Source of the DNA: Candidatus Pacearchaeota archaeon
Lineage (GTDB): Archaea; Nanobdellota; Nanobdellia; Pacearchaeales; GW2011-AR1
DNA: 64,000 nt
Reading direction: 5' to 3'
Assembly (NCBI GenBank): GCA_016866995.1
Contig: VGKQ01000001.1
Coordinates: 16,194-80,193 of the forward strand
A program made the position numbers and the translations under genes. Numbering within the stretch: the first letter of the stretch is position 1; every line of letters begins with the position of its first letter. A model generated the notes under the pieces. It was not told the origin of the DNA and made no database searches. It worked only from the letters and a program-made list of their open reading frames with translations. Shown here piece by piece: positions 5,999 to 36,988 of this stretch.

Positions 5999-7087
5999 AT
6001 GGCTGACATAATAAAAGTGGGTGAAAAAAGCCAGGAAATTATTGAAATTGACAGGGAGCTGGAAGAATTCTTGAAGAAACAAACAGCAAAGATAAAAGTA
6101 GTTGGAATAGGCGGAGGCGGAGGAAACACTCTTTCTAGAATGAGAGAAGTTGGAATTAAAGGAGGAGAAATGATTGCATTAAATACAGATGCACAGGACT
6201 TGCTTTATACAAATGCTGACCAGAAAATTCTCATTGGAAGAGAGCTTGCGCAGGGATTAGGAGCAGGAAGCAACCCAAAAGTCGGAGAGGAAAGCGCGCG
6301 AGAGGCAGAACACGAGATAAAGCAAAAGCTTTCAGGAGCAGACATGATTTTTATAACATGTGGATTAGGCGGAGGCACAGGAACAGGAGCTGCCCCTATT
6401 GTCGCAGAAATTGGCAAGAAGCTTGGAGCATTAATTATTGGAGTTGTTACCCTGCCGTTTACAATCGAAGGAAAAAAGAGAATTGAAAATGCAATGTACG
6501 GCTTGGAAAGGCTTGAGAGCATTGTTGATACATTAATCGTAATTCCAAATGACAAGCTTCTTGAGCTTGCTCCCGAGTTGCCTTTGCATACAGCTTTCAA
6601 AATAGCAGATGAAATTCTTACAAACGCAGTCAAGGGAATTACAGAACTTGTAACAAAAGTTGGCTTGGTTAACAGAGATTTTGCAGATGTAAAAGCAATC
6701 ATGAAAGACGGCGGAGTCTCGTTAATAGGAATGGGCGAGTCTGATTCACAGCAGAGAGCAATAGAAGCAGTCGAGAAAGCACTTGAAAATCCTCTTCTTG
6801 ACGTTGATGTCAGCAATGCAACAGGCGCACTAGTTAATATTATAGGCGGCCCTGATTTAAGTCTAGATGAGTCAAGAGTAATAATTGATTATGTTGGCAA
6901 GAAACTGAATGAAGATGCAAAACTCATCTGGGGGGCGCAGATTTCAGAGGATATGGAAAAATCAATTAGAGTTATGCTTATTATCACAGGAGTTCAGTCA
7001 GGGCAGATTCTCGGGCACGAGCATACAACAGTTGAAAAAGCCAAGAAAGATATGTCAGATGAGCTTGGTATTGAGTTCTTAGATTAA
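5999..7087 (+). CDS. ftsZ: Cell division GTPase FtsZ
   Basis: GIGGGGGN and the tubulin signature GLGGGTGTGAAP are present, with a full-length FtsZ fold. Confidence 0.95.
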   Translation: MADIIKVGEKSQEIIEIDRELEEFLKKQTAKIKVVGIGGGGGNTLSRMREVGIKGGEMIALNTDAQDLLYTNADQKILIGRELAQGLGAGSNPKVGEESAREAEHEIKQKLSGADMIFITCGLGGGTGTGAAPIVAEIGKKLGALIIGVVTLPFTIEGKKRIENAMYGLERLESIVDTLIVIPNDKLLELAPELPLHTAFKIADEILTNAVKGITELVTKVGLVNRDFADVKAIMKDGGVSLIGMGESDSQQRAIEAVEKALENPLLDVDVSNATGALVNIIGGPDLSLDESRVIIDYVGKKLNEDAKLIWGAQISEDMEKSIRVMLIITGVQSGQILGHEHTTVEKAKKDMSDELGIEFLD

Positions 7088-10616: not shown

Positions 10617-10702
10617 GGGGCCGTGGGGTAGTCTGGTAGCCTTCCAGCCTTGGGAAAATCTCAAGAGAGTTGGCGACCCCGGTTCAAATCTGGGCGGCCC
10701 CA
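10617..10702 (+). tRNA. tRNA-Pro (anticodon UGG) with a 13-nt intron in the canonical position 37/38
   Basis: The acceptor stem is GGGGCCG/CGGCCCC with A73. The D-arm is GGGT-AGTCTGGTA-GCCT. The anticodon stem CCAGC/GTTGG encloses CTTGGG + aaaatctcaagag + A. The T-arm is CCCGG-TTCAAAT-CTGGG. Confidence 0.75.
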
Positions 10703-11882: not shown

Positions 11883-12127
11883 TATTGTCTTTTGTTGATT
11901 GTCAAATAAAAATTCTATAACAAATATTAACAAAAATAATTAAACATAACACCTTAATTTAATTTCTAATAACTTAATCTCAGAATTAGTTTATATTAAC
12001 TTATATTTTTTAGTATAATTTGCTTTAGTTTATAGTTAAAAACAAATTTTTCAATTTTTTTTAACTACTCTATTGCAATTAATGGATTATAGAAATATTT
12101 ATAAACTATCTAGATATACTTTTGACT

Positions 12128-12523
12128 ATGGTGCTTAAAAAATTAAAAGAGATGTTTACAGGAGTTTCAACAGAGGCAGATTATGTTGAAATTGACTTGG
12201 GGCAGGAAGCAAGAAAAAGCAAGGTTCTTGTCCGCCCATTCATTCTAAGACAGTTTGATGACATAAACGAAATCTTAAATACATTAAGAGAAGGATACAC
12301 AATTGCTGTTATAGACATCCGCCCGCTGAAAACCAAAGATGTCATTGAGTTAAAAAGAGCGATAAGCAAAGTCAAAAAGACTGCAGAAGCTCTTGAAGGA
12401 AGCATTGCCGGATTTGGAGAGAATATAATAATAGTAACTCCAAGCTTTGCAGAAATCCACAAAGCAGTGCCAAAACCAGTAGCAAAAGGAATTGAGCTTT
12501 TTGATGAAGGCAAGTTTGAATAA
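12128..12523 (+). CDS. sepF: Cell division protein SepF (FtsZ membrane anchor)
   Basis: KVLVRPFILRQFDDINEILNTLREGYTIAVIDIRPL...ELKRAISKVKKTAEALEGSIAGFGENIIIVTP matches the SepF/DUF552 core. The track ORF starts at TTG 12122; ATG 12128 is the likelier start. Confidence 0.7.
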   Translation: MVLKKLKEMFTGVSTEADYVEIDLGQEARKSKVLVRPFILRQFDDINEILNTLREGYTIAVIDIRPLKTKDVIELKRAISKVKKTAEALEGSIAGFGENIIIVTPSFAEIHKAVPKPVAKGIELFDEGKFE

Positions 12524-12696: not shown

Positions 12697-13296
12697 ATGA
12701 AAATCATGCACATAGAAGCAGTAAAAAAAGAAAAAATAAATTTTCAGGCTCTGGAAGAGCTTGAAAAAATTCTTCCTCCTATAATATATATAGCATACAG
12801 CATACAATACAAAAATCTGGCTCTTGAGTTAAAAAGCAAAATAAAGAAAAAAATAGCGGGCTTTTCACAAGTTCTTGGCTGTTCAAAACTCAAAACAAAT
12901 TTTCCTATACTATTACTGAGCTCAGGAAGATTTCACGCATTAAATCTCGCGCTTCAGGGAAACAAGGTTTATATTTTTGACAATTTCTCGCTAAAAGAAA
13001 TTGACAACAAGGAAATTGAATCAATAAAAAAGAGAGAAAAAGCAAAATATCTCAGGCTTCTTTCTTCAGACAATATAGGTATTATAGTATCAGCAAAATA
13101 CGGGCAGGAAAATCTCAGTAAAGCAGAAAAAATAAAAAAACAGCTCGAGAAAAAAAACAAAAAAGTTTTTTTATTTCTTTCAGATAATATAAATCCAAGC
13201 GAACTTGAAAATTTTTCATGTGATATTTTTGTCAATACTGCCTGCCCCGGATTAATGCTGGATTCTAACAAAATTATAAATCAAAATATTTTCTGA
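12697..13296 (+). CDS. Dph2-like diphthamide synthesis radical SAM family protein, short form (199 aa)
   Basis: QVLGCSKLKT...LLSSGRFHALNL and the C-terminal IGIIVSAKYGQ...DIFVNTACPG resemble Dph2 domains 2 and 3 (vLGaCd...GdGrFH; TACPR). The first domain is absent. Confidence 0.45.
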   Translation: MKIMHIEAVKKEKINFQALEELEKILPPIIYIAYSIQYKNLALELKSKIKKKIAGFSQVLGCSKLKTNFPILLLSSGRFHALNLALQGNKVYIFDNFSLKEIDNKEIESIKKREKAKYLRLLSSDNIGIIVSAKYGQENLSKAEKIKKQLEKKNKKVFLFLSDNINPSELENFSCDIFVNTACPGLMLDSNKIINQNIF

Positions 13297-13358
13297 GTTA
13301 TATATTTTACAACACAATAAAGTTTAAATACCTTTACAACTGCACAATTACAACAAAG

Positions 13359-14957
13359 ATGAAAAAAGAATTACTCACGCTGGTTTTAATGACGGTAATG
13401 CTTACAAGTTTGGCAAGCGCACTGAATTTTAATCCTCAGGTAAATACCCTTACAAAATCAGCAAATGTTTCAGCATTTACACTAACTAATAATGAACCCG
13501 GCCCATTTAATTTCAGTGTAACAATTCCTCAGAAAATTGCAGATTCAAATAATCATTTTGTCACAATAGCTTCTCCATATACATATAATTTTTATAATTT
13601 AAATACAAGCAACTCTAGCTCTGTAAATATCTCAATCTCAAAAATTGATGATAATTTTGATATTGGGACATTCAATGCTCCTATTAGTATATTAGCATAC
13701 AATGAAACAACTTTAGAGCAGAGAAACGTTTCTCTTCAATTTACTTATGATTTCTGCGACATGGGGCAGGTTGGAAAAATAAAAGTTCTTGATATTGATG
13801 ATGTTTCTTCAGAGACTAATTTCAAATGGAAGCCACTTGACAAAGTTGAGATTGATATTGATGTCCAAAATAACAGGATAGGAAGAGATATTGATGCAGT
13901 AGTTGAAATTGACTTGTATGACACTGTTGACAAGCAGTTTATAGGAGTAGATGGGGATGGAGGAGACTTGACAGAAGATGTCAGCATTGATGACGGCAAA
14001 AAAGAGCAGGTTACATTTACAATAAGTGTGCCTGCAGAAGTTGCAGAAGGCTCTGGAAGATATGTTCTTTATGTAAAAGCTTATGAAGATGGGGAAGAAG
14101 AAACAGAGTGCAATGAAAAGCTCCAGAATATACAGATTGAAAGAGATTCAAGAGAAGTTAAGGTTATGGAAATTATTGCTCCCAACTCTTCAATTTGCGG
14201 AGCTGATGAAGATATTAAGTTTAAAGTGGCAAATATAGGCAGAAATTCTGAGAAGAAAATCCTTGTTGAAATGGTTAACAAAGAGCTTGGGATACAAGAA
14301 TCAAGGGAAATATCTGATCTAGGGCAGGATGACAATCCAAAAGAAATAACATTTGCAATACATATTCCAGAAAATGCAACACAAAAAACATACACATTGT
14401 CATTTAATCTTCGCTATAAATATGACACCAACGACAAGACATATGATATAAGCGAAGACGGGGTTGCAAGCCATACAATAAAATTAGAAGGAAACTGCAT
14501 CCAGGTTTCCAATACAGATGCTCTAATCACAGCAACTCTTGAGTCTGGAGCAAACGCAGGGCAGGAAATGACTGTAAATGCAAACATAAAAAATACAGGC
14601 TCTCAGACAACTTCTTATACACTATTAGTAACAGGAATTGACAGCTTTGCAACACTTGAAAGCATTAATCCGCAGACATTTACACTAAATCCAAACCAAG
14701 CCAAAGATGTTACAATAAAACTTTTAGCCAAGCCAGACGCAGGCGGGGATTATACATTCACAATAACTGCTTTATTTGACGGAAAAACAAAGCAGCAGTC
14801 TGCAACACTTACAATAACAGGCAAGCAGTCAGTTTCAGGCTCAGCAATAATTGACAGCCTCAAATCAAACTGGCTAATCTGGCTTATAGTTGTAATTAAT
14901 ATTGTTCTGATAATACTAATAATTGCCGTTGCAGTTAGAATATCAAAAAGAGAGTAA
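13359..14957 (+). CDS. Secreted/cell-surface protein with an N-terminal signal peptide, repeated beta-rich domains and a C-terminal TM anchor plus basic tail
   Basis: The N-terminal signal is MKKELLTLVLMTVMLTSLASA. The C-terminus is ...NWLIWLIVVINIVLIILIIAVAVRISKRE. This is a tripartite C-terminal sorting-signal-like architecture. Confidence 0.6.
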   Translation: MKKELLTLVLMTVMLTSLASALNFNPQVNTLTKSANVSAFTLTNNEPGPFNFSVTIPQKIADSNNHFVTIASPYTYNFYNLNTSNSSSVNISISKIDDNFDIGTFNAPISILAYNETTLEQRNVSLQFTYDFCDMGQVGKIKVLDIDDVSSETNFKWKPLDKVEIDIDVQNNRIGRDIDAVVEIDLYDTVDKQFIGVDGDGGDLTEDVSIDDGKKEQVTFTISVPAEVAEGSGRYVLYVKAYEDGEEETECNEKLQNIQIERDSREVKVMEIIAPNSSICGADEDIKFKVANIGRNSEKKILVEMVNKELGIQESREISDLGQDDNPKEITFAIHIPENATQKTYTLSFNLRYKYDTNDKTYDISEDGVASHTIKLEGNCIQVSNTDALITATLESGANAGQEMTVNANIKNTGSQTTSYTLLVTGIDSFATLESINPQTFTLNPNQAKDVTIKLLAKPDAGGDYTFTITALFDGKTKQQSATLTITGKQSVSGSAIIDSLKSNWLIWLIVVINIVLIILIIAVAVRISKRE

Positions 14958-14959
14958 AT

Positions 14960-14978
14960 TTTCTCTTTCTAAGAGAAG
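14960..14978 (+). terminator. Stem-loop (TTCTCT-ttcta-AGAGAA) followed by a T-rich tract, 3 nt after the stop of 13359..14957
   Basis: A 6-7-bp stem sits directly after the TAA at 14955-14957 and is followed by ttttctttatttttt. The same hairpin motif recurs at 41080 and 43293. Confidence 0.45.
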
Positions 14979-15011
14979 AAGATATTTAAATAGCTTTTCT
15001 TTATTTTTTCT

Positions 15012-15533
15012 ATGAAAAAAGAAAACAAGAAACTGCTGCTTATTTTCTCAAGATACATATTTCTTGTATTAATTGCGCTGCCAAATCTTTTCTTGTTTTA
15101 TCTTGTCTTCACTCCGCTGACAGTCAATTCTGTGAATTTTTTTCTCAACTTTTTCTATTCTTCCATTATTTATGGCAGCAAGATACTTGTAAATAATACT
15201 TCAATAGAAATCATACAGGCATGCGTTGCGGGCTCTGCTTACTATCTTCTTTTGCTTCTTAATCTTTCCACTCCAATGAAAGCAAGAACAAGAATTTATT
15301 CAATTATTTTCTCACTTCTAGTTTTTCTCCTTATTAATATAGCAAGAATTTTTATTTTCTCAATGCTCTACTTGAATTCTTTCGCCTATTTTGATATAAC
15401 TCACAAGATTTTTTGGTATGTTGTTTCTGGAGTTATTGTTTTCTTTGTCTGGTTTGCTACAATTAAAATTTATAAGATAAAAAATATTCCTTTTTATACA
15501 GATATCAAATATATCTACAAACTGACAAAATAA
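15012..15533 (+). CDS. Small polytopic membrane protein, exosortase/archaeosortase-family-like
   Basis: It has about 5-6 TM helices and a Cys in ...IIQACVAGSAYY.... An Asn/Arg pair sits in ...LINIARIFIFS... It lies immediately downstream of a surface protein with a C-terminal TM+basic signal. Confidence 0.4.
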   Translation: MKKENKKLLLIFSRYIFLVLIALPNLFLFYLVFTPLTVNSVNFFLNFFYSSIIYGSKILVNNTSIEIIQACVAGSAYYLLLLLNLSTPMKARTRIYSIIFSLLVFLLINIARIFIFSMLYLNSFAYFDITHKIFWYVVSGVIVFFVWFATIKIYKIKNIPFYTDIKYIYKLTK

Positions 15534-15534
15534 A

Positions 15535-16158
15535 TTATTTTTTCTTTTTTTTAACACAGACATAGATAACTACTGCAATTATTGAAAAAATTACTGCAAA
15601 TACTGTTATCTTGTCAAGATTCTGTTTTATTAGCTCCTGATTCTGCCCGAAAGCATATCCAAGATAAATCAAAATTGCGCTCCAAATCCCAGCACCAAGC
15701 GCCGTGTAAAAAATGAATTTTCCAATATTCATTTTTGCAAATCCTGCCGGAAGCGAGATAAGCTGGCGTATTACAGGAATCAGTCTTCCTATAAAAGTTG
15801 TGATTTCCCCGTGATTTTCAAAAAATTTCTCTGATTTTTTTATGCTGTTTTTGTCAATAAAAAATATCTTCCCGTATTTTTTAGCAAGGGAATTCACGGC
15901 TCTTCTTCCTAGAAAATTCGCAAGATAATAATTTACAAAAGCTCCAAGCAGGCTTCCAAGAATGCTGGCTGTAAATATAAGAAATACTGACATTTTTCCC
16001 TGATACACAAGATATCCTGCAGGAATTAGTACAATCTCGCTTGGAAACGGGATAAAAGAGCTTTCTATTGCCATTAGAATGAATATCCCAAGATACCCAA
16101 GAGAGCCTATAGAAATTACAAGAAAATTCGCAAAATCCGACAATATCTCTGAAATCAT
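15535..16158 (-). CDS. DedA/SNARE-associated (TVP38) family membrane protein
   Basis: The DedA signature region is ...GRLIPVIRQLISLPAGFAKMN...; it is a multi-TM protein. Confidence 0.8.
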   Translation of the reverse strand: MISEILSDFANFLVISIGSLGYLGIFILMAIESSFIPFPSEIVLIPAGYLVYQGKMSVFLIFTASILGSLLGAFVNYYLANFLGRRAVNSLAKKYGKIFFIDKNSIKKSEKFFENHGEITTFIGRLIPVIRQLISLPAGFAKMNIGKFIFYTALGAGIWSAILIYLGYAFGQNQELIKQNLDKITVFAVIFSIIAVVIYVCVKKKKK

Positions 16159-16180: not shown

Positions 16181-16840
16181 TTAAATGTCTATTCCTCTGT
16201 TGGATGCATAAACCCCCATCATAAATCTTTCTGTAACATTCATAAAATTGCAGTTGGCTATCTGCAGTCTGTAGCAATTTTCGTCTTTTATTATTTTATC
16301 ATTGCTTCCTTTTTCAAATAAAATCACAGAATATTTTTCATCTAAATTTCCACAATCTGAATATGTAAGATTTCTTTCAACTGCTTCTGTTTCATTTACC
16401 ACAACAGTATACTCCTTCAGGTTTAATCCTGCGCTTACAAGAAACGAATTAAGGCGGGAAGGGGCAAGAATGCTGTCATCGCATTTCTCCATAATAACTT
16501 CTTTAGTGGCTGAAAATGCAACATTTTTCTTTAGTTTTATTGTTCCATTAATTTTAATGTTTCTTAATTTTCTCGGATCTTCTGAAAATGTAAATGGCAT
16601 GTAAGCTGTAACTTTTCCAGAAGCATCAGCAAGAGGAAACAAAGCATTATATTCTATTCTGCTTCCTTGTTGTATTTTCTCAAACTTTACTCCAAGATAT
16701 TCAAACTTGCTGCTTCCCATTTCAACAAGAAAAATAGCCGCCATAATTGCTATAATTATTCCTAATATTGCCAAAACCCATTTTAACTGGCTTTCATGCT
16801 TGTCTTCTTTTATTTTTCTCTTTTTCATGTTATCTTTCAA
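16181..16840 (-). CDS. N-terminally membrane-anchored hypothetical protein
   Basis: A single N-terminal TM helix is followed by a soluble domain. Confidence 0.4.
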   Translation of the reverse strand: MKDNMKKRKIKEDKHESQLKWVLAILGIIIAIMAAIFLVEMGSSKFEYLGVKFEKIQQGSRIEYNALFPLADASGKVTAYMPFTFSEDPRKLRNIKINGTIKLKKNVAFSATKEVIMEKCDDSILAPSRLNSFLVSAGLNLKEYTVVVNETEAVERNLTYSDCGNLDEKYSVILFEKGSNDKIIKDENCYRLQIANCNFMNVTERFMMGVYASNRGIDI

Positions 16841-17040: not shown

Positions 17041-17604
17041 TTAGCTTTGTAAAATCCTGTAAATAAAAGAATCAGCCGCCTTTATTGTGTTATTGGAGAA
17101 AATAAAAACACAATTATCTTCTTCAGTATACACTGATTTCTTAAAATCTGGCTTTTCTTTTATTATTATCATGTTGCTTGAGCAATTTTTTTCAGGCAGG
17201 TTTTCAGTGCAGTTTTCCATATAGCACGCAAGATTAATTCTCTCTGCAAACTGGGCAAGATTTCTCGCAATTTCTTCATCCGCAGCACTGCTTCCTGTAA
17301 GATACAGCGGATTTTTTATATAATCCTGCAATCTCTTGTTAATTTTCACTTCTTCTGTCTCATTTGGAAGATAGCGAAAATAAAATTTATAGCTGGAAAT
17401 TTCAGTTGTCCAGACATCTCCCTGCCTCGTAAAAGTCAAGCCATTCATGCTTACTTTCCCTTCTGCTGTTGTTTTCTCCCACCCAAAAAAAGCATATCCT
17501 GCTGAACTTAAAAGAAGAATAATTCCAAAAATAATCACAATTATCTTGTTTCTTCTTTCTCTCTTTTTTTCTGTTTCTTCTTTATTCTCAATTTTTCTTA
17601 TCAT
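17041..17604 (-). CDS. N-terminally membrane-anchored hypothetical protein
   Basis: It has a basic N-terminus, a TM helix and a soluble domain. Confidence 0.4.
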   Translation of the reverse strand: MIRKIENKEETEKKRERRNKIIVIIFGIILLLSSAGYAFFGWEKTTAEGKVSMNGLTFTRQGDVWTTEISSYKFYFRYLPNETEEVKINKRLQDYIKNPLYLTGSSAADEEIARNLAQFAERINLACYMENCTENLPEKNCSSNMIIIKEKPDFKKSVYTEEDNCVFIFSNNTIKAADSFIYRILQS

Positions 17605-17848: not shown

Positions 17849-20449
17849 TTAAGCAGTTACTACTGGATACACATTGCTTGTACCTAATGTAGTTGCGTGG
17901 TTCTCTTTCAACTTTGCTACAGCGTTCTTTGTATCAGCTGCCTCATATCCAGCAACTAACACAGCCACTTTGGCAGAATTGTAAGGAGATGCCACTGCCT
18001 TGATTAAGTACTGTCCTACTCCAACATTTGTTTTTGCTGTCCAAGCAGCGCCACAAACCGGAGCAGTTGCATTTGCATCCACTATCTTCCTTGCAACAGT
18101 ATTTACACAGCTTCCACCAACAACAAGAAGGTTCTTGTCTTTGACAGAGTCAACATCTGCGTCTTTGACAACTTTTATAGTGCCTCCGCCAGCAGATGCG
18201 CTTCCAGCAACAGTTACTGCGCTTGGTGACTTGAAAAGCACATCTACATACATCTGCTCATCCGGATAACTTACACTTACAGCATAGTTTGTTCCTGTTG
18301 AAACATCTCTTTCAACAAGAGTTCCGTAAGTTGTAACTCCCTTGCTTTTGTAGGTATTAGTCTGCATTGTCTGCAAGCTTAATACTGTATCAGCTGAAAC
18401 AGGAGTTCCTACTCCCGGCATGTTTGTTGAGCCACTTGTGTAAATTGTCAATGGAATGCATACATAGTTTCCATTTGTGTCTGAAAGAGTTTTTTCCTCT
18501 TGTATTAACACAGCAGGCCCATATGTTGCATTAACAATACACTCTGCCCACAAAGCATTGTCTGTATTAATTCCTTCTATAGTTGCAGTGCTGTTTGTGC
18601 TTAGCACATTAAGTGTGTAATTTACATTTCCAAACTTTGTGCTGCTTTCTCCAATCGCCTCTGTATCATTTCTTATTAACACAGTCTGTCCTGCCTTGTA
18701 TGTAGTTAAGTCATACAATCCAGGCAGCGAGTAAACAGTCCCGTTTGTAAGAGTGACTGGTGAGATAAACGAGAGCCACTCTCCATTTTTCAGCTTTATT
18801 CTTGGGAATACAGTAATCTGTGTTCCTGTAACAGCTGTAGAAGAGACTGCGCCCCAAGTCAAATTAACAACCCATTTTGATGAGTCTGTATTGCTTGGAT
18901 CAGTTGCAGCATTGTATTCAGCTCCACCGATTGTTCGTGCGCTTAAAGTTGCATTTCTTGTTCCTGTTGCAAAGTCATAATCTGTTCCAGTTATGACATC
19001 TCTCAATCTTGTATAGTCATTGGTGCTTGTGCCTGCTCCTATGCTAATGACTTGGAATATTCTTCCTTCATCATTGTCATTTGCAATTATCCAATCTCCA
19101 ACTTTGGCATTTGCTCCTTCAATGTTCCAGATTGTATAATTTGCATCTGTTGCGAGCTGTGCAAGCAAAGCCCCGTTTGCTATCAAGTCCCTGTCTCTTG
19201 CAAAAGCAAGCTGTTTTTCACCAGCAGTTCCAGCCAAGTATGATGTAAACTTGACTCTTGCTGCGACTGAATTATCAGTGTCAACAAGGATAGTGTCTCT
19301 GGCTGTTGAATTCATGTCAGGTGTTGCTGCTGCAAACTCTACTTGCACTCCACCAAGCACTCTATCTGTAAAGCTTTGTCCAACTGTAAGATAGTCGCCT
19401 GTTGCTGACTCTGCAGCCTGTGCAATTGTAACAGAGTTTATTCCAGAGCCGCTTGTTCCGCTAACTAATGCAGCTGTTCCAAGGATTGTTGTGTCATCTG
19501 CTCCATACTTAACAGCCTGATTATTCTCTAAATGCAGTGTCTTTGCTCCTAAAAGCAAATCAGCACTTGATAATGTTCCTGTTTTTGTTGCATGGAACAA
19601 ATCTTTCACATAAACCTGGAAATCTCCTGCAAATTTGTAGCTTGAACCTTTTGAAACAGTTTTTCTTACTCCATCAACTTCAATTGTTGCTGAAGTTGTT
19701 GAAGAAGTTCCAACAAGCAAGACAGTATGGTCTTTATCAGCCACTTTGACTGTCTTTGTCTCGCCTTCATTCACTGATGCTCCGGCTCCAGACCCATATA
19801 GATATAATGTGTCTGCGTCAGAATTTGCTCCAATTGTAAACTCTGAGCCAAGCATCTTTATTGTTGCAGTTCCAACTACACTTGAATCAGAGACATTTAA
19901 TGTCTTTGAAAATGTCAAGGTGTAATTGTACAAAGGTGTTGTTCCCTGGTAGCCTGTATCAACCAACAATCCAGGATCCATGCTCTCCCCGCTCTTTGAA
20001 AAGGTAACTTTTCTGTTGCCTCCAATCACAGTGATAGTCTGAGTATATTTATACTCTGTTCCTGAATTATCATATGCAGAACCATCTGCAAGGATGTTTG
20101 GCATATGATCTTTTGTAAGAATAGTTCTTGCTGCATTCAAAGCGCTGTTCATATACAGCTTTTGACTTGATGTAGCAAGATTTACACTATCTCCGCCAGT
20201 TGTAGTTGTTGTTGTAGTTGATGTTCCTACACTAACAAGAGCTTGCAGGGCTGTTTGAGTTGAAACAGCTGCATCCCAGTCACTTACAGCGCCAACCTGG
20301 CTTCCAGAAGTCACAACAACTGCGCCATCAGCAGCTCCTCCAACAACGAATGGTGCCGGATAGTTTGCTGCAGCTGCAATTCCTAAGGTGCTTCCTAGCA
20401 TTACAACACTAGCTAACACTGATGCAATTTTTCTGAAATTAAATTTCAT
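17849..20449 (-). CDS. S-layer / major cell-surface glycoprotein-like protein (866 aa)
   Basis: The N-terminal signal peptide is MKFNFRKIASVLASVVMLGSTLGIAAAA. The composition is extremely Thr/Ser/Gly/Ala/Val-rich with many N-x-S/T sequons. A long AT-rich leader lies upstream. Confidence 0.6.
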   Translation of the reverse strand: MKFNFRKIASVLASVVMLGSTLGIAAAANYPAPFVVGGAADGAVVVTSGSQVGAVSDWDAAVSTQTALQALVSVGTSTTTTTTTGGDSVNLATSSQKLYMNSALNAARTILTKDHMPNILADGSAYDNSGTEYKYTQTITVIGGNRKVTFSKSGESMDPGLLVDTGYQGTTPLYNYTLTFSKTLNVSDSSVVGTATIKMLGSEFTIGANSDADTLYLYGSGAGASVNEGETKTVKVADKDHTVLLVGTSSTTSATIEVDGVRKTVSKGSSYKFAGDFQVYVKDLFHATKTGTLSSADLLLGAKTLHLENNQAVKYGADDTTILGTAALVSGTSGSGINSVTIAQAAESATGDYLTVGQSFTDRVLGGVQVEFAAATPDMNSTARDTILVDTDNSVAARVKFTSYLAGTAGEKQLAFARDRDLIANGALLAQLATDANYTIWNIEGANAKVGDWIIANDNDEGRIFQVISIGAGTSTNDYTRLRDVITGTDYDFATGTRNATLSARTIGGAEYNAATDPSNTDSSKWVVNLTWGAVSSTAVTGTQITVFPRIKLKNGEWLSFISPVTLTNGTVYSLPGLYDLTTYKAGQTVLIRNDTEAIGESSTKFGNVNYTLNVLSTNSTATIEGINTDNALWAECIVNATYGPAVLIQEEKTLSDTNGNYVCIPLTIYTSGSTNMPGVGTPVSADTVLSLQTMQTNTYKSKGVTTYGTLVERDVSTGTNYAVSVSYPDEQMYVDVLFKSPSAVTVAGSASAGGGTIKVVKDADVDSVKDKNLLVVGGSCVNTVARKIVDANATAPVCGAAWTAKTNVGVGQYLIKAVASPYNSAKVAVLVAGYEAADTKNAVAKLKENHATTLGTSNVYPVVTA

Positions 20450-31197: not shown

Positions 31198-33573
31198 TTA
31201 TGAAGCAGAGTTGTACATTCTTGCTATAATTGTGCAGTCAGCAGGATTTGGCTGATTTCCACTTGAGTCTACGCATTTGATATAATAGTTTGTGCTTGTC
31301 TTCCAGTCAGTATAATGATATGTTGTGTTTGCATATAATAATTGTGTTCCGGTGTTTAATGCAAAATTGCACTTCTGATTTACAGCTTCTGAATAATAGC
31401 AAGTTGATTTCTCATTTGTCTCAATTCTTAATTTTCCTCCTTCATTATACAGCCTTGTAACAAACGGAGCCTGCCTGTCTACTTGCACTGTAAATTTTGT
31501 GGAATTGTAGTCTGCATTATTTCCCAAATCAACGCACTTGAAATAATATGTGTATGTTCCAGGAGGCAGCTGCTGATTTTGCTTGTGTTTGCTTGAACCA
31601 GTTTCAAACATTTTTATGTAGCTTGAATCAGTATTTTGCTGGGAATAATAGCACATTGCATCTCCATTATTAAAACCGTTTCCTGTTTCAACTTCCAAAT
31701 CAACAGAAACAACATTTGCATATCCCTGAACTGTTCCGTTCGGTCCTGTTTTCAAAATATTCACAGGCTGTGTTCCTTTCAATATAAATGGATAGCTTTC
31801 TGCATTTGTATTTCTGTCATTTTGATTTTCCAGTGTTGGCTGGTCTCTGCATCTGAAGAAAAACTGATTGTCTTTTCTGTTTTCCAAGCCATTTAAAGTT
31901 GTATAGCACTTGTAAAGCATATTATTATTTATATTCCAGACATTCTGCGCACAAGTCATTGTATTTTCCATCAAATCATAATCTTTATCCTGCTTGCTCC
32001 ATCTGCAGTCAGCAGGCTCGTTTGTATAAACTTCTATATCTGTCTCATTCAAGCCAAACTGGAAAGGCATTCCAGACGGAATGCTTGTCCCAACAATTTC
32101 AGGAGGAGTTGTGTCAGGCCCTTTTTCAACGCAGAATCTTATTGCAAATTCATCCTCATTTATATTTCCATTCCCGTCCTGGCATCTTACATATAAAGTG
32201 TATATTCCGTCATGCTTGAGTTCAGGAGATGCATTCTGCATTGCACTTGGGCTTGGAAGTCTTAATGTCTGGCTGTGATTGTAGTCATACAAATTACTCT
32301 CTCCAAAATAAAACTGCATGTTTGAGTATGCGTTCTTGACATCTCTTACGTTTACAGTGTGATTATAATCTATTTTGCATTGTGTAGGCTCATTAGTTGA
32401 AATTCCAAATGTTATTGGAGTAAAAGCTTTAATACAGCCATCTGAAGCAGCATCTCTTGTAACTCTCATTCCTGTTCTAGGCGGACGTATGTTTACATCT
32501 TTATACGAGTGTCCTTTGCTTAAAACTTCCAGCCACGGAGCTATTGTCGGAGATGTTACATCATGAGGATTTTTCCAGTAGCACAACAATCCTTCTTTGC
32601 TTGGAACAACATCACATCCCTGCCCGAGTGATTTGCATCTGTATTCAGAACACGGACGCATTAAATCTTTATTGCATAACTCACAATATTTTCCTCCTGT
32701 TGGAGCTTCATATGGCTTGCATTCAAATACAACTTGTTTCTTGCTTTCTTTTTTCCATAACATATTCAAGACAAGCAATCCAACTCCAACTGCAATTCCC
32801 AAGCTTAAAAGCTGAGCCTGTCCTGCATTTGCCAAGCCAAGAGGCAATCCTTCAGTAGCTTTCGCACCCCAGACAGCTTTTCCTCCTCCCCACATCTCAA
32901 GATTTAATCCTTTTCCTGTTAAAATAGGTGATAATATCTGATATGTCATTGCTCCTGCAAATGCAGCCACTCCAAGAGCTTTCTGATTATTCTTGCTCAA
33001 TCCAAACATTCCTCCTCCAAGATATCCCACAAGCCCTATAACTCCTGCATAAAATAATGAACTGATAATAGAATCAGCTGCCAATGCTCCGAGAATATTC
33101 GAGCTTGCAGCAGCTCCTCCTGTCCCAGATGTTCCTACTTCTACAAGTTTGTTGCCTGCTCCCATTTCATATATTTTGTTTTTATACATAAGCTGACTTA
33201 AATCAGCATTAAATCTTACTTCTGACAGAGGAACTGCTCCTATGCCAGGTATATTAACACTATTTCCAAGAAGAAATCCTGAAAAAGGGTCTCCGGGCTT
33301 CATAATTCTTGTAAAAGCTTCTGCAACCTTCACAGGAGGGGCAACAGGGGGCGCAGGCGGAGGATTTGTAGCAGTAAGAATAATATTTGTTGTTGGTGTA
33401 GAATGATAGCTTAATCTTAAATCCATTGGTTTCAAAGATTCTTCTATGCTCGGCAAGCCAGGTACTTGAGCATCAGCAAGAGAAATCAAAAATGAAAAAG
33501 CAGCAACAGCTATAATTAAATCTGCAATTATAAAAATTGCTTTACCCCTTTTTCCCTCTTTTTTATTTCTCAT
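31198..33573 (-). CDS. Cysteine-rich membrane/surface protein, 'C-module' (791 aa), paralogous to the C-terminal half of 36989..41053
   Basis: It has an N-terminal TM, a Gly/Ala-rich multi-helix region and a Cys-rich ectodomain. Shared blocks with the giant protein include CKPYEAPTGGKYCELC... vs CKPWQPPVGGSDCDKC..., ADCRWSKQDK and PFVTRLYNEGG vs PYVTRVYNSQG. Confidence 0.6.
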   Translation of the reverse strand: MRNKKEGKRGKAIFIIADLIIAVAAFSFLISLADAQVPGLPSIEESLKPMDLRLSYHSTPTTNIILTATNPPPAPPVAPPVKVAEAFTRIMKPGDPFSGFLLGNSVNIPGIGAVPLSEVRFNADLSQLMYKNKIYEMGAGNKLVEVGTSGTGGAAASSNILGALAADSIISSLFYAGVIGLVGYLGGGMFGLSKNNQKALGVAAFAGAMTYQILSPILTGKGLNLEMWGGGKAVWGAKATEGLPLGLANAGQAQLLSLGIAVGVGLLVLNMLWKKESKKQVVFECKPYEAPTGGKYCELCNKDLMRPCSEYRCKSLGQGCDVVPSKEGLLCYWKNPHDVTSPTIAPWLEVLSKGHSYKDVNIRPPRTGMRVTRDAASDGCIKAFTPITFGISTNEPTQCKIDYNHTVNVRDVKNAYSNMQFYFGESNLYDYNHSQTLRLPSPSAMQNASPELKHDGIYTLYVRCQDGNGNINEDEFAIRFCVEKGPDTTPPEIVGTSIPSGMPFQFGLNETDIEVYTNEPADCRWSKQDKDYDLMENTMTCAQNVWNINNNMLYKCYTTLNGLENRKDNQFFFRCRDQPTLENQNDRNTNAESYPFILKGTQPVNILKTGPNGTVQGYANVVSVDLEVETGNGFNNGDAMCYYSQQNTDSSYIKMFETGSSKHKQNQQLPPGTYTYYFKCVDLGNNADYNSTKFTVQVDRQAPFVTRLYNEGGKLRIETNEKSTCYYSEAVNQKCNFALNTGTQLLYANTTYHYTDWKTSTNYYIKCVDSSGNQPNPADCTIIARMYNSAS

Positions 33574-33578
33574 CTTTT

Positions 33579-34268
33579 TTATTTTGTAACTAACATAAAT
33601 TCCTGCCTTCCGGCAGTGACACCATCAATTTCCAATTCAACAGCGCATGAAAGTCTTAATCCTCTTGCACCGCTTTTATTGTCAAAAAATTGCCTTGAAT
33701 AAATCATTCCTCCCGGGCTTACTTCATTTTCTGGCTCTCTTTCTATATCCTTTCCGTCGTCATACCAGACAAGCCTCATTTTTGCGGTTCTGCCTGTCTG
33801 ATTTAATCCTATTACAGTAATATTCTCTCCTTGGTTATATTGCCTTTTTTCAAAGCCAGACAACTCGCTTTTTCTGAGAAATTTATCTCCATTGTCAATC
33901 CAGTCATTGCACAAAATTAAAACAGGCAATCCATTTTCAAAATGAGTTTGCTGTACTTGCATAAATCTTCCAACATAAATATCCATTTTATTTGTCCATG
34001 AATTATACCTGTAAACATTATCTCCTAATCTTGCAAACTTCCAGTCAGGACTTACTAAGCAATTTGCAGTTCTTACATTCCCAACATATATTTCTCTTCC
34101 AGCAGGCACCCAGTTAATAGAATTAATATCAACAGCTACTGGCTGGCATTCCTCTCTTGGTGGCATATACGAGCCAAAATATCCCCCACCCCAGCATCCT
34201 GCAATACTTGCAGCTGCAGCACTTGCAAGTGCTGCCAATCCTCCCTTCATAAAATTTCTTCTGTCCAT
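33579..34268 (-). CDS. Putative Tat-signal lipoprotein (229 aa)
   Basis: The N-terminus MDRRNFMKGGLAALASAAAASIAGC has a twin-arginine motif (RRNFMK) and a lipobox-like AGC. Confidence 0.45.
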   Translation of the reverse strand: MDRRNFMKGGLAALASAAAASIAGCWGGGYFGSYMPPREECQPVAVDINSINWVPAGREIYVGNVRTANCLVSPDWKFARLGDNVYRYNSWTNKMDIYVGRFMQVQQTHFENGLPVLILCNDWIDNGDKFLRKSELSGFEKRQYNQGENITVIGLNQTGRTAKMRLVWYDDGKDIEREPENEVSPGGMIYSRQFFDNKSGARGLRLSCAVELEIDGVTAGRQEFMLVTK

Positions 34269-34330
34269 TTTCCTTGTTTTTCCTTATATAAACTTATATT
34301 TAAATCTTTTGTTTTGTTATTATTTAAAAG

Positions 34331-36157
34331 TTACATCACTTTTAAGCTTTCTAATAATCCCTGATTTATTGATTTATTTTGAATTTCAGCACTGGCTGTA
34401 GACAATCCTAAAAGCCAGTCTCCCCCCTTAAGCAAAGGCAAAAATAATTTTGTTCCAGAAACTCCAAAGCCACTTGAAAGATATTTGTAAACTCCTTCTG
34501 AGCCAGTGCAGTCTCCCAAAGCCCTGCAGATTTCTTCATTTTTCTTCTGCCAAGTATCACCCCCGCACTCGCAATTCTCAACACAATCCTCACTCCCTCC
34601 AAACAATCCTTTTTTCTCATACTCAATTGTGCACGCAGCATTTCCAAGGCTGCATTGTGATTGCGCCTCTCCTGCCTGCCAGAATTTCAAGCCAGGAGGA
34701 TAATTAGGCACACAAACCGCTCCTTTCAAAGTTTTTGGTTCATTTTCATCTTCTTCATCTCCTCCAAGAATTCCTGAAGAAGTTGTTTTCTCGGGCTCTG
34801 GAAAGCTTCCTGAACTTGAGCTTGTGCTTGCCTGAACTCCTGCAAGAATGCTTGTTCCAATTGCCCCTTCAATCCACTGGCAGTCTCCTTTGTCAACATT
34901 CTCACAGTCTTCTTTTGTCTTGAATGTCACGCAATTCTGCCACCTGTTTGCAATACACCCTGCCTGCTGAAAATCTCCTTTATCAGTTGTAATTTTATCT
35001 TGTAAACAAATCTCTGCTCTTAAATCAGCGCACGGCTCTACAAGCTCCTCGCCAGCAACGCAAATATGCTTCCAGTATCTTGAGCCAGCAGGATCTTTTC
35101 CTTTCCCTGTTCCATCATCATATATGCACCAGCTTTCACCATGTCGATAATCTTTTCCATCTTTTGTGTTCTTGCAGTTCAAATCCCTGCATATAAAATC
35201 TCCATATGTCGGCCTTCTTGCATCCTTGCTTGCATCATACTTCCTGCAAAAACTTCCGCCAAAATAATCACAATTTCCACAAGATACAGAATTTGCATTC
35301 GAGTTTGTATTTCCAGCCCCGCACGAATCTTTCTTTTCAATAATTTTTCTCCAGTATGCAGGCTCATCAATTTTTGCAGCATCATAAATATTCGCAGGAT
35401 TCCCGCACGTGTCCTTGAAATAAACTTCATCTCTTCCATCCACACATCCTGTTTTAACTTCTCCTTTGCTGTTTCTTCTTGCGCAGTTTGTTCCAAGCTC
35501 TTCAGCAGTGCACAAATAATCTTTGTGAAAGCTCGAGTTGCCTGTATAATTTCCTGTTTTCTTTTTCATTGCCTCGCACTCTCCTTTTGTTGTGAACTTG
35601 CATGTTTTTGTAAAATCCTGCTCATACACGCACGCTCCTTTGTCCTGGGCATGCGCAAGTGCAATGCATGCTGTTTCTGACTGAACATCTGTTCTGAAAT
35701 TAATCTGAACTCCAAAAAATGAAGAAAGCTTTTTGCATCTTACAAGAGTTACAAATGCTGCCTGGTCGCTGAATACACAGCATCCTAAATTGCATTGCGG
35801 AATTTCACATTTTGCAGAATCTGCCCATGTCCCATTGCTCGCCTGGCACACTAATTGCGGAGTGTTTTCCATGCATATTCCTTCCTTGCTGTCATAACAG
35901 CATCCCTGCCTGCAGTAAGATGTTGCATCGCATGATGTTGGAGTTATTCTAAAGCCAGAATCACAAGATTGTGTCAATGCATTCTGGCACCAAGCTCCAT
36001 AAATTGTTTTTTCACAGCAGACATTTGTCTGCTGTGCTGATGTTTGTGTTAATACAATAATAGACAATAAAAAAGCCATTCCAATAATTACAAAAGAAAA
36101 TATCATTCTCTTGATTAATTCTCTTTTTCTTTTTTCTTTAATCTTTTTTTGTTTCAT
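34331..36157 (-). CDS. Cysteine-rich membrane/surface protein, 'N-module' (608 aa), paralogous to the N-terminal half of 36989..41053
   Basis: An N-terminal TM is followed by a Cys-dense ectodomain (CC pairs). The 20-aa block CVDGRDEVYFKDTCGNPANIY is identical to one in the giant protein, and the two share a 60-nt identical DNA tract. Confidence 0.6.
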   Translation of the reverse strand: MKQKKIKEKRKRELIKRMIFSFVIIGMAFLLSIIVLTQTSAQQTNVCCEKTIYGAWCQNALTQSCDSGFRITPTSCDATSYCRQGCCYDSKEGICMENTPQLVCQASNGTWADSAKCEIPQCNLGCCVFSDQAAFVTLVRCKKLSSFFGVQINFRTDVQSETACIALAHAQDKGACVYEQDFTKTCKFTTKGECEAMKKKTGNYTGNSSFHKDYLCTAEELGTNCARRNSKGEVKTGCVDGRDEVYFKDTCGNPANIYDAAKIDEPAYWRKIIEKKDSCGAGNTNSNANSVSCGNCDYFGGSFCRKYDASKDARRPTYGDFICRDLNCKNTKDGKDYRHGESWCIYDDGTGKGKDPAGSRYWKHICVAGEELVEPCADLRAEICLQDKITTDKGDFQQAGCIANRWQNCVTFKTKEDCENVDKGDCQWIEGAIGTSILAGVQASTSSSSGSFPEPEKTTSSGILGGDEEDENEPKTLKGAVCVPNYPPGLKFWQAGEAQSQCSLGNAACTIEYEKKGLFGGSEDCVENCECGGDTWQKKNEEICRALGDCTGSEGVYKYLSSGFGVSGTKLFLPLLKGGDWLLGLSTASAEIQNKSINQGLLESLKVM

Positions 36158-36172
36158 TTTTTATAGATTATT

Positions 36173-36940
36173 TTATTTATTCACATATTTGTCAACACCA
36201 TAACCAGGAGGCCAGCTCAAGCTTCTTGTGGCAAACACAAGTTTTTCTCCTGTAATTCTGTGAGTTAAAGTATAAATCTTGCTTCCATCCTCAAGCTTCA
36301 TTTTCTCAATTTTAATATCAGGATAATACATCATAAATGTTTCTGGAGCAGAATCTCCTTCCCTTGCCTCCCAGTTTAAGATACTTGAGGCAATCATAAT
36401 CAAATCATACATCTCACTGTTCCTGGCAATGCTAAATTTTTCATAATTCTCGCTTGCTCCTTTTGTCAGAGTTACTTTCGAGTTAATTGTTATTTTTATG
36501 CTTCCAGATTCAATTTCTGTTGAAACTTCGGGCTTGCTTGAACTTGTTTGATATCCTTTGCTCTTGTAATCATTTATAAGCTCATTTAAACAAGTTTCTG
36601 CCTTATCTTTCATATAACTTGAGATTTCTTTTTCAACATGCTCCAATAATAATGGCTGCTGCATTGTGCATGTTTTATAATACTCATTTGTATAGCACAA
36701 ATATTCAATTTTATTTTCTTTATACATAATAGAATGCTCTGGCTCAAGGCTTCCCCCCCTTTCTGTAATATTTTCTATTATTCCCATATGCTGATTCATG
36801 CACTCTTCAATATAGCCAGAAGGAGTTTTTGGAGCTGCCCCTAAACTTGATAATCTTGGATAAAAAATAATTATTAACAAGCCGATAAGAACAATTGCTA
36901 TAATTATAAATATTGTCACCTGCGATTTTTTATTTATCAT
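36173..36940 (-). CDS. Pilin-like small membrane-anchored protein (255 aa), paralog of 41202..41981
   Basis: The N-terminus MINKKSQVTIFIIIAIVLIGLLIII is a class III-like signal (KS|Q). It shares YLCY...C.MQ.PL..EH.E.EI..Y with its paralog. Confidence 0.5.
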   Translation of the reverse strand: MINKKSQVTIFIIIAIVLIGLLIIIFYPRLSSLGAAPKTPSGYIEECMNQHMGIIENITERGGSLEPEHSIMYKENKIEYLCYTNEYYKTCTMQQPLLLEHVEKEISSYMKDKAETCLNELINDYKSKGYQTSSSKPEVSTEIESGSIKITINSKVTLTKGASENYEKFSIARNSEMYDLIMIASSILNWEAREGDSAPETFMMYYPDIKIEKMKLEDGSKIYTLTHRITGEKLVFATRSLSWPPGYGVDKYVNK

Positions 36941-36988
36941 TTTCCCTCTTTTTTCATAATCATTTTAATATTCTGCCTATTATAAATA

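Follow-up and report, generated by a model that had tools for sequence, protein, structure and literature searches.

The DNA analyzed here is a stretch of 64,000 nucleotides (nt), referred to below as the window, from contig VGKQ01000001.1 of a Candidatus Pacearchaeota archaeon. Within it we investigated two neighboring genes, one for a secreted-type protein of 532 amino acids (aa), hereafter the target, and one for a membrane protein of 173 aa, hereafter the sortase. We consider it likely, with a probability of about 0.8, that the two constitute the pacearchaeosortase/PACE-CTERM system of Pacearchaeota (DPANN), in which a small archaeosortase-family enzyme acts on a single dedicated target. 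The pair is read as enzyme and substrate because of its scores against hidden Markov models (HMMs), the invariant residues of the enzyme, the synteny of the genes, and the conserved, target-specific tail. A sortase-substrate pair had been proposed earlier from the letters of the DNA (the sequence-only reading), and the same evidence supports that proposal; the two open reading frames (ORFs) on which it was based were confirmed in position, length, and strand. The guanine-plus-cytosine (GC) content of the window is ~31%, and its gene content is archaeal, including ribosomal protein L37ae, prefoldin beta, SepF, FtsZ, and Dph2.

The gene pair and the sortase

The two genes are separated by 54 nt in the window and are assigned as follows.

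13359..14957, + strand: target gene, encoding a PACE-CTERM protein ("putative S-layer protein", 532 aa) that is the predicted substrate of the sortase; assigned by NF033506 and GenBank identity
15012..15533, + strand: pacearchaeosortase gene (173 aa); assigned by NF033505, TIGR04178, and GenBank identity

A search against exosortase-family HMMs, which the sequence-only reading had suggested as a check, returned NF033505 and TIGR04178 above their cutoffs. The 173-aa protein scored 198.4 bits (E = 8.6e-59, curated cutoff 80) against NCBIfam NF033505, "pacearchaeosortase", in a near full-length alignment of residues 11–171 with profile positions 4–165 of 167. It also passed TIGR04178, "exosortase/archaeosortase family protein" (26.7 bits, cutoff 23), with residues 65–148 on profile positions 1–90 of 97, a span that takes in C71 to H131. 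The 532-aa protein scored 359.3 bits (E = 4.5e-107, cutoff 110) against NCBIfam NF033506, "PACE-CTERM-PROT, putative S-layer protein"; residues 25–531 aligned with profile positions 114–627 of 627, and the alignment therefore includes the tail, since it extends to the last position of the model. GenBank lists identical proteins for Candidatus Pacearchaeota archaeon, encoded on an 88.8-kb contig: the sortase is MBM3233498.1 ("pacearchaeosortase"), and the target is MBM3233497.1 ("putative S-layer protein"). Both proteins are members of two curated families, and the pair is already known at the database level. The sortase HMM had only one match in the 64-kb window, the 173-aa protein, and no second sortase was found there.

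Four residues of the sortase, all with verified codons, are central to the assignment.

15222..15224, + strand: codon of C71
15336..15338, + strand: codon of N109
15345..15347, + strand: codon of R112
15402..15404, + strand: codon of H131

The segment QACVAGS carries C71, and NIARI carries N109 and R112. Both segments had been singled out beforehand as reminiscent of exosortase/archaeosortase catalytic residues, and in an alignment of 26 relatives (49–63% identity) the Cys and the N-x-x-R were indeed invariant, as was H131, which had gone unmentioned. Further invariant positions in the same alignment are R14, Y15, T37, G74, N84, R94, W135, W147, P160, and D164. Cys, Arg, and His form a putative triad whose conservation across exosortases and archaeosortases is reported to be almost complete (Haft, bioRxiv 10.1101/2023.06.07.544157), and published work on Haloferax ArtA places C173 in the active site (PMC7157517; PMC6098224). 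The 173-aa protein is a candidate intramembrane cysteine protease/transpeptidase with the putative triad C71/R112/H131.

The AlphaFold model of the sortase has a mean predicted local distance difference test (pLDDT) score of 87.7 and a predicted template modeling (pTM) score of 0.77. It contains five long hydrophobic helices, one fewer than the approximately six transmembrane segments expected by the sequence-only reading, along with a beta element of three strands and, at the C-terminus, an amphipathic helix. The order of elements is helices 3–22 and 26–45, beta element 51–66, helices 69–86, 91–121, and 127–153, and amphipathic helix 160–172. C71 starts the third helix (69–86), N109 and R112 lie within the fourth (91–121), and H131 is placed at the start of the fifth (127–153). 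Segments rich in Lys and Arg occur at the N-terminus, at residues 87–93, and in the C-terminal tail, at the helix ends opposite Cys/Arg/His. By the positive-inside rule, we infer that the Cys/Arg/His cluster would lie in the outer leaflet, level with the start of the C-terminal helix of the target. The sortase profile gave no match to PDB sequences, and a Foldseek search of the model against the PDB gave no match at E <= 0.001.

The target, its sorting signal, and linkage to the sortase

The target consists of a signal peptide, a beta-rich ectodomain, and a C-terminal signal.

13359..13421, + strand: Sec-type signal peptide, aa 1–21, MKKELLTLVLMTVMLTSLASA, followed by L; from reading of the sequence, with helix 3–17 in the model
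13446..14819, + strand: ectodomain of four immunoglobulin (Ig)-like or macroglobulin-like beta-sandwich domains; from the secondary structure of the model
14868..14954, + strand: PACE-CTERM sorting signal, aa 504–532; from family position frequencies and the tail HMM, codons verified

Cleavage of the signal peptide is predicted after ASA, and an LVSA(A)-type signal-peptide end is conserved in the target-family alignment. The start codon is called differently by two sources: NCBI begins the gene at 13359 (532 aa), and JGI begins it 10 codons later, at 13389 (P0121, 522 aa). The 532-aa start is probably correct, as the longer form supplies a proper signal-peptide n-region (MKK). In the AlphaFold model of the target (pLDDT 83.3), the signal helix is followed by four all-beta domains (roughly aa 30–130, 141–260, 267–377, and 388–487), a short linker of low confidence (491–498), and a C-terminal helix (496–531). 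Four Cys residues (133, 251, 280, and 380) are invariant in the family alignment, and the Pfam FixG_C Ig-like fold matched at aa 409–481 with 32.4 bits. N-glycosylation sequons were not enriched in the target (9 observed vs 6.9 +/- 2.3 expected).

As the sequence-only reading had described, the 532-aa protein is of the secreted type and ends in a hydrophobic helix plus RISKRE. Its C-terminal end reads ...KSNWLIWLIVVINIVLIILIIAVAVRISKRE and has the three parts of a tripartite C-terminal signal, namely a signature motif, a hydrophobic helix, and, at the very end of the chain, a basic tail. In the window protein, they correspond to N504-W505-L-I-W508, a hydrophobic helix that reaches V526 and contains the intramembrane N514, and R527-ISKRE before the stop codon. 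The statement that the tail lacks a known signature motif held in part. No PGF or PEP motif is present; a conserved family motif (N504-W505-x-x-W508 ... N514 ... R527) is, and it is covered by NF033506.

Position frequencies of the tail were obtained from 58 full-length family members anchored on the intramembrane Asn, with the following consensus:

N(0.76)-W(0.48)-[YFL]-[LI]-W(1.00)-G-I-G-x-[LI]-N-[VI]-I-L-[IV]-x-x-I(0.98)-I(0.91)-x-V-A(0.91)-x-[RK](1.00)-x-A-[RK]-[KR]-COOH

Relative to the Asn, the frequencies (n = 58) are 1.00 for Trp at -6, 0.98 for Ile at +7, 0.91 for Ala at +11, and 1.00 for Arg or Lys at +13. The 100% values of the Asn and of the Leu that follows it are partly circular, as both were in the regular expression used for anchoring; the Trp, Ile-Ile, Ala, and Arg/Lys columns are independent of it. 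The C-terminus lies 17–18 residues past the intramembrane Asn and 24–25 residues past the invariant Trp. No other segment of the target is as conserved as the tail, whose mean top-residue frequency is 0.58, compared with 0.26–0.54 elsewhere. The window protein has the tail variant NW[LFI]IW[VL]IV.[VI]N, compared with the majority variant NWYLWGIG.LN, and its clade has WLIVVIN in place of the WGIGxLN of most relatives.

To examine the linkage of signal and enzyme, we scanned one genome per species, which yielded 321 genomes with a sortase relative, and analyzed the loci of 80 of them, nearly all labelled Pacearchaeota, Woesearchaeota, or Nanoarchaeota. In 73 of the 80 loci, the sortase gene was preceded on its own strand by the target gene, which was directly adjacent in 25, 401–1500 nt apart in 42, and farther away in 6, and the pairing persists where other genes sit between the two. 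In the remaining seven loci, the target was on the other strand in two and was not found in five, four of which had less than 1.7 kb of upstream sequence. When an HMM of the tail by itself was run on these loci, every matching ORF (69/69) belonged to the target family. In the 64-kb window the tail HMM matched the 532-aa ORF only (35.5 bits, E = 4.8e-11). A conserved C-terminal motif, which the sequence-only reading had suggested looking for among surface proteins, was present, on one protein family.

Metagenome contigs served for the reciprocal test; they were searched with a degenerate DNA pattern, constructed by hand, that encodes W-x-I-x-x-h-N-h-h-L-h-x-x-I-I-x-h-A, where h is a hydrophobic residue. 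An automatic pattern derived from the tail alignment was purely hydrophobic and confirmed nothing, and the hand-built pattern was used instead. The motif was found in at least 120 loci. In all 120 among the matches listed, it was C-terminal on a protein recognized by the HMM of the target body and sat 24–32 residues from the stop codon. A sortase followed downstream on the same strand in 51 of the 57 metagenome loci, among the matches listed, with at least 2.2 kb of downstream sequence. Within the sampled loci, there is one enzyme and one target family.

In the course of the locus survey, a pacearchaeosortase gene (locus L075, positions 282–818) was also encountered on the 7-kb contig LCJG01000042.1, labelled "Candidatus Collierbacteria bacterium", a member of the Candidate Phyla Radiation (CPR). 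The contig is most likely a mis-binned archaeal one.

The conserved neighborhood

The pair is part of a syntenic block. The genes for L37ae, prefoldin beta, SepF, in some loci Dph2, the target, the sortase, and in some loci a DedA-like protein follow one another in the same direction, and hyp219, hyp187, and an 866-aa signal-peptide protein come next in the opposite direction. A PAP2 gene, where present, is inserted between target and sortase in the opposite direction. The features of the block and its surroundings in the window are as follows.

5999..7087, + strand: FtsZ, about 6 kb further upstream than SepF
12122..12523, + strand: SepF (PF04472, 42 bits), two genes upstream of the target and within the conserved block
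13323..13330, + strand: possible archaeal TATA box TTTAAATA, 29 nt before the target ATG, a sequence reading
14985..14992, + strand: possible TATA box TTTAAATA within the T-rich spacer of 54 nt, 20 nt ahead of the ATG of the sortase gene
15535..16158, - strand: DedA/UptA-like (VTT-domain) membrane protein (PF09335 VTT_dom, 86.9 bits)
16181..16840, - strand: hyp219, one of three further conserved genes next to the sortase, present in 58–69 of 80 loci
17041..17604, - strand: hyp187, the second of these
17849..20449, - strand: the 866-aa signal-peptide protein, the third of these

The DedA-like protein scored 138 bits (equivalog cutoff 250) and 116 bits against NCBIfam UptA models, both below the cutoffs. 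In 37 of the 80 loci, the gene immediately after the sortase encodes a homolog; it runs in the direction of the sortase in 36 and, in 35 of these, is no more than 150 nt away. In the window, the gene is inverted, with its stop codon one base from that of the sortase. The DedA-like neighbor is possibly linked to the sortase in function. In 38 of the 80 loci, target and sortase flank a gene for a PAP2-superfamily phosphatase (~205 aa) in the opposite orientation (for example, L002 7370–7921 and L008 487–1104, both on the - strand, with 81.5 and 69.3 bits against PF01569), and no homolog was found anywhere in the 64-kb window. This intervening gene was at one point considered DedA-like, a candidate that was rejected in favor of the PAP2 assignment. 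Among the six PAP2 copies inspected, five read PSFQ (one PSAQ among them) for the canonical PSGH, which was kept only in L002.

The hyp219 and hyp187 products are N-terminally anchored and have no family matches; the idea that they are paralogs was rejected on comparison. The 866-aa protein has a signal peptide, no C-terminal anchor, and a weak S_layer_C match (15 bits). The GC content of its gene is locally raised (0.415 vs about 0.31), and the protein had no match among PDB sequences. It could be a second subunit of the envelope or surface layer (S-layer).

The proximity of SepF and FtsZ to the target may be plain synteny; in Haloferax, ArtA-dependent S-layer insertion at midcell has been reported (PMC7157517). 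The Dph2-like ORF at 12697..13296 (+ strand, 199 aa) covers positions 72–283 of the 308-position archaeal Dph2 model at 109.8 bits, below the cutoff of 202.8, and occupies this position in 29 of the 80 loci. It may be a truncated or short form.

The possible TATA box before the sortase suggests that this gene may have its own promoter. The octamer TTTAAATA is mildly enriched in the window as a whole (28 matches vs 18.6 +/- 4.1 expected), and to read it as a TATA box is a tentative step. In a scan for bacterial promoters and terminators, the counts matched those of shuffled sequences, the scan being unsuited to archaea.

Two further observations concern other parts of the window. ARAGORN called a tRNA-like gene at 10617..10702 (+ strand) with an undetermined anticodon ("tc"), absent from the Rfam results at the gathering threshold; a false positive is one possible explanation, and an archaeal tRNA gene with an intron is another. 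At 31198..41053 on the - strand, four large ORFs of 791, 608, 255, and 1354 aa lie on the same strand in a region where the GC content rises to as much as 0.41. A Pfam scan that covered the three largest gave no match at E <= 1e-5, and the four ORFs may encode further surface or giant proteins.

Mechanism, alternatives, and comparison with known systems

By analogy with Haloferax ArtA/PGF-CTERM, the target would cross the membrane via Sec and stay anchored for a time through its C-terminal helix, with the N-terminus outside and the basic tail inside. The sortase may then dock on the N-W-x-[LI]-W...N...L face of this helix in the outer leaflet. C71, aided by R112 and H131, would attack a peptide bond at or near the motif to give a thioester intermediate, with removal of the helix and basic tail. 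The new C-terminus could be transferred to the amine of a membrane lipid, forming a lipid anchor as proposed for ArtA, or be released by hydrolysis, and either route would yield the cell's major envelope protein in its mature form. C-terminal cleavage and lipidation of ArtA targets are ArtA-dependent, and a model with a thioester and archaetidylethanolamine has been put forward (PMC7157517; PMC6098224).

Several points weigh against the assignment to an enzyme with a dedicated target. Adjacency alone is weak evidence of coupling, because housekeeping genes (L37ae, prefoldin beta, and SepF) share the block; block-wide synteny weakens this line of evidence, and the argument therefore rests on the specificity of the tail and the enzyme family. 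The claim of one target per genome is bounded by the scan, in which 64 kb were covered here and at most 8 kb on either side of the pair in the other genomes. As to the enzyme, Pfam PF09721 (Exosortase_EpsH) had no match to the window sortase at E <= 1; it reached 8 of the 26 close relatives (best E 1.7e-05), and precomputed PF09721 matches are on record for several homologs. Pfam alone would thus miss the window enzyme, whose family is seen via NCBIfam. The positive-inside count is inconsistent for sortase helices 1 and 2, and the number of membrane crossings is 4 or 5. As to the target, Foldseek returned only generic tandem beta-sandwich (Ig-like or macroglobulin-like) proteins with TM-scores <= 0.25, the family profile had no match among PDB sequences, and no solved S-layer relative emerged from either search. 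The generic Foldseek matches give no support either way for an S-layer role, which is putative and is taken from the database label. Finally, that the target is cleaved, where the cut would fall, and what would become of the resulting C-terminus are inferred by analogy with ArtA.

The alternative that survives best, although we consider it unlikely, is that the enzyme is a pure endopeptidase, which would shed the ectodomain for release, secretion, or hand-over to an anchoring partner, and not a lipid-anchoring transpeptidase. Even for ArtA, the cleavage site and one-step transpeptidation are still open (bioRxiv 10.1101/2023.06.07.544157; PMC6098224), and Pacearchaeota have been reported to lack lipid biosynthesis genes (PMC11537232), so that a dedicated route to a lipid acceptor, for example through PssA/PssD, may be absent. 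Among the conserved neighbors that were labelled, none was PssA/PssD-like, the genome itself not having been searched for PssA/PssD. On the other hand, the Cys/Arg/His set is the one tied to transpeptidation in sortases and proposed for ArtA (PMC7157517; bioRxiv 10.1101/2023.06.07.544157), and genes for lipid handling (PAP2 phosphatase and DedA/UptA-like) are often the immediate neighbors, which argues for transpeptidation.

A second alternative, for which we see only a slim chance, is that the C-terminal helix is a permanent transmembrane anchor, as in Sulfolobus SlaB, next to a sortase that is adjacent through synteny and has no enzyme-substrate relation to it. Such an arrangement would fit the conservation of the whole block from L37ae to the 866-aa protein, which makes adjacency unspecific, and S-layer subunits with a permanent C-terminal transmembrane helix are known in archaea without archaeosortases (PMC6098224). 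A plain anchor, however, needs hydrophobicity only, whereas here Trp is present in 100% of the sequences, the intramembrane Asn, the Leu, the Ile-Ile pair, the Ala, and the Arg/Lys recur, and the distance to the C-terminus is fixed. In addition, the tail exceeds all other segments of the target in conservation, the neighbor is an archaeosortase-family member with Cys, Arg, and His intact, and the pairing of target and sortase outlasts the insertion of intervening genes.

An undescribed minimal sortase-substrate system with a previously unrecognized C-terminal motif, as the sequence-only reading had it, is very improbable, since both partners are covered by curated NCBIfam models (NF033505 and NF033506) that have already been applied to these exact proteins in GenBank, even though we found no mention of "pacearchaeosortase" or "PACE-CTERM" in the searchable literature, the DPANN genomics papers from our literature search nowhere mention archaeosortases, and a 2018 review confines archaeosortases to a subset of Euryarchaeota (PMC6098224).

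The pacearchaeosortase/PACE-CTERM assignment invites a broader, and doubtful, extension, in which sortase and target would be the core of a DPANN envelope-assembly module with C-terminal processing coupled to the handling of polyprenyl-phosphate lipids. The PACE-CTERM protein would be the sortase-matured, membrane-proximal stalk, and the 866-aa protein the outer canopy, of a two-component S-layer resembling SlaB/SlaA. A local supply of the acceptor or anchor lipid, or of a glycosylation carrier, is conceivable because PAP2 (38/80) and DedA/UptA-like (37/80) genes flank the sortase; if true, it would be of interest for organisms reported to lack lipid synthesis. Likewise, recognition via an intramembrane Asn and an invariant Trp would, if true, be a new type of archaeosortase signal.

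As a discovery the pair carries little weight, being already contained in curated models and GenBank annotation. It does represent an archaeosortase system in DPANN archaea, outside Euryarchaeota, that is not discussed in the searchable literature. What this analysis adds is an explicit sorting signal (invariant Trp, intramembrane Asn, and a fixed Trp-to-C-terminus distance of 24–25 residues), evidence for the dedication of this signal to one protein family, and the recurrent PAP2 and DedA/UptA-like neighbors. Should the target be the chief envelope protein of Pacearchaeota, the way it matures is relevant to surface assembly and anchoring in very small, probably host-dependent cells.

Compared with the curated pacearchaeosortase and PACE-CTERM families, the window pair shows no substantive difference: both proteins are full-length members, with gene order and tail as in 73 of the 80 loci. 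Local differences are the inverted DedA-like gene and the absence of the PAP2 gene that lies between the partners in 38 of the 80 relatives. The target resembles Sulfolobus SlaB in having a beta-rich secreted ectodomain on a single C-terminal transmembrane helix, and the anchorless 866-aa signal-peptide protein encoded nearby (17849..20449) is reminiscent of the SlaA/SlaB arrangement. This is an analogy only; no similarity to SlaB in sequence or fold was established, and Sulfolobales have no archaeosortases (PMC6098224).

With ArtA/PGF-CTERM of Haloferax volcanii and methanogens, the sortase has in common the TIGR04178 signature and the conserved Cys, Arg, and His. The targets are alike in carrying a signal peptide and, at the C-terminus, a tripartite signal with the motif directly next to the helix. 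The main known target of ArtA is the envelope (S-layer) glycoprotein, and the window target is labelled a putative S-layer protein. The systems differ in that no ArtA model was among the NCBIfam matches up to E = 1 and the target has no PGF motif. The enzyme is also smaller, with ~173 aa compared with ~300 aa for ArtA (912-bp gene, PMC7157517). Genomes with ArtA encode 1 to 52 targets (PMC6098224), whereas here, within the sampled loci, one protein family bears the signal. The lipid-related partners of ArtA are PssA/PssD (PMC7157517); near the sortase relatives studied here, PAP2 and DedA-like genes are seen in their place.

The sequence-only reading had called the system minimal, and the enzyme is indeed small, although not unusually so: ArtE (TIGR04124), ArtD (TIGR04175), XrtX, XrtM, XrtH, and heimdallarchaeosortase are of similar size, with models of 150–199 positions (ArtE 153, ArtD 150, XrtM 150, XrtH 158, and XrtX 168). 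To ArtE the sortase shows a weak full-length similarity of 29 bits (protein 3–155 on model 2–152 of 153), which does not reach the cutoff of 95, and the small-subfamily models in general score far below their cutoffs (29 vs 95, 17 vs 125, 24 vs 170, and 22 vs 130). As judged from these profile comparisons, pacearchaeosortase forms a subfamily apart from these and has a target signal of its own.

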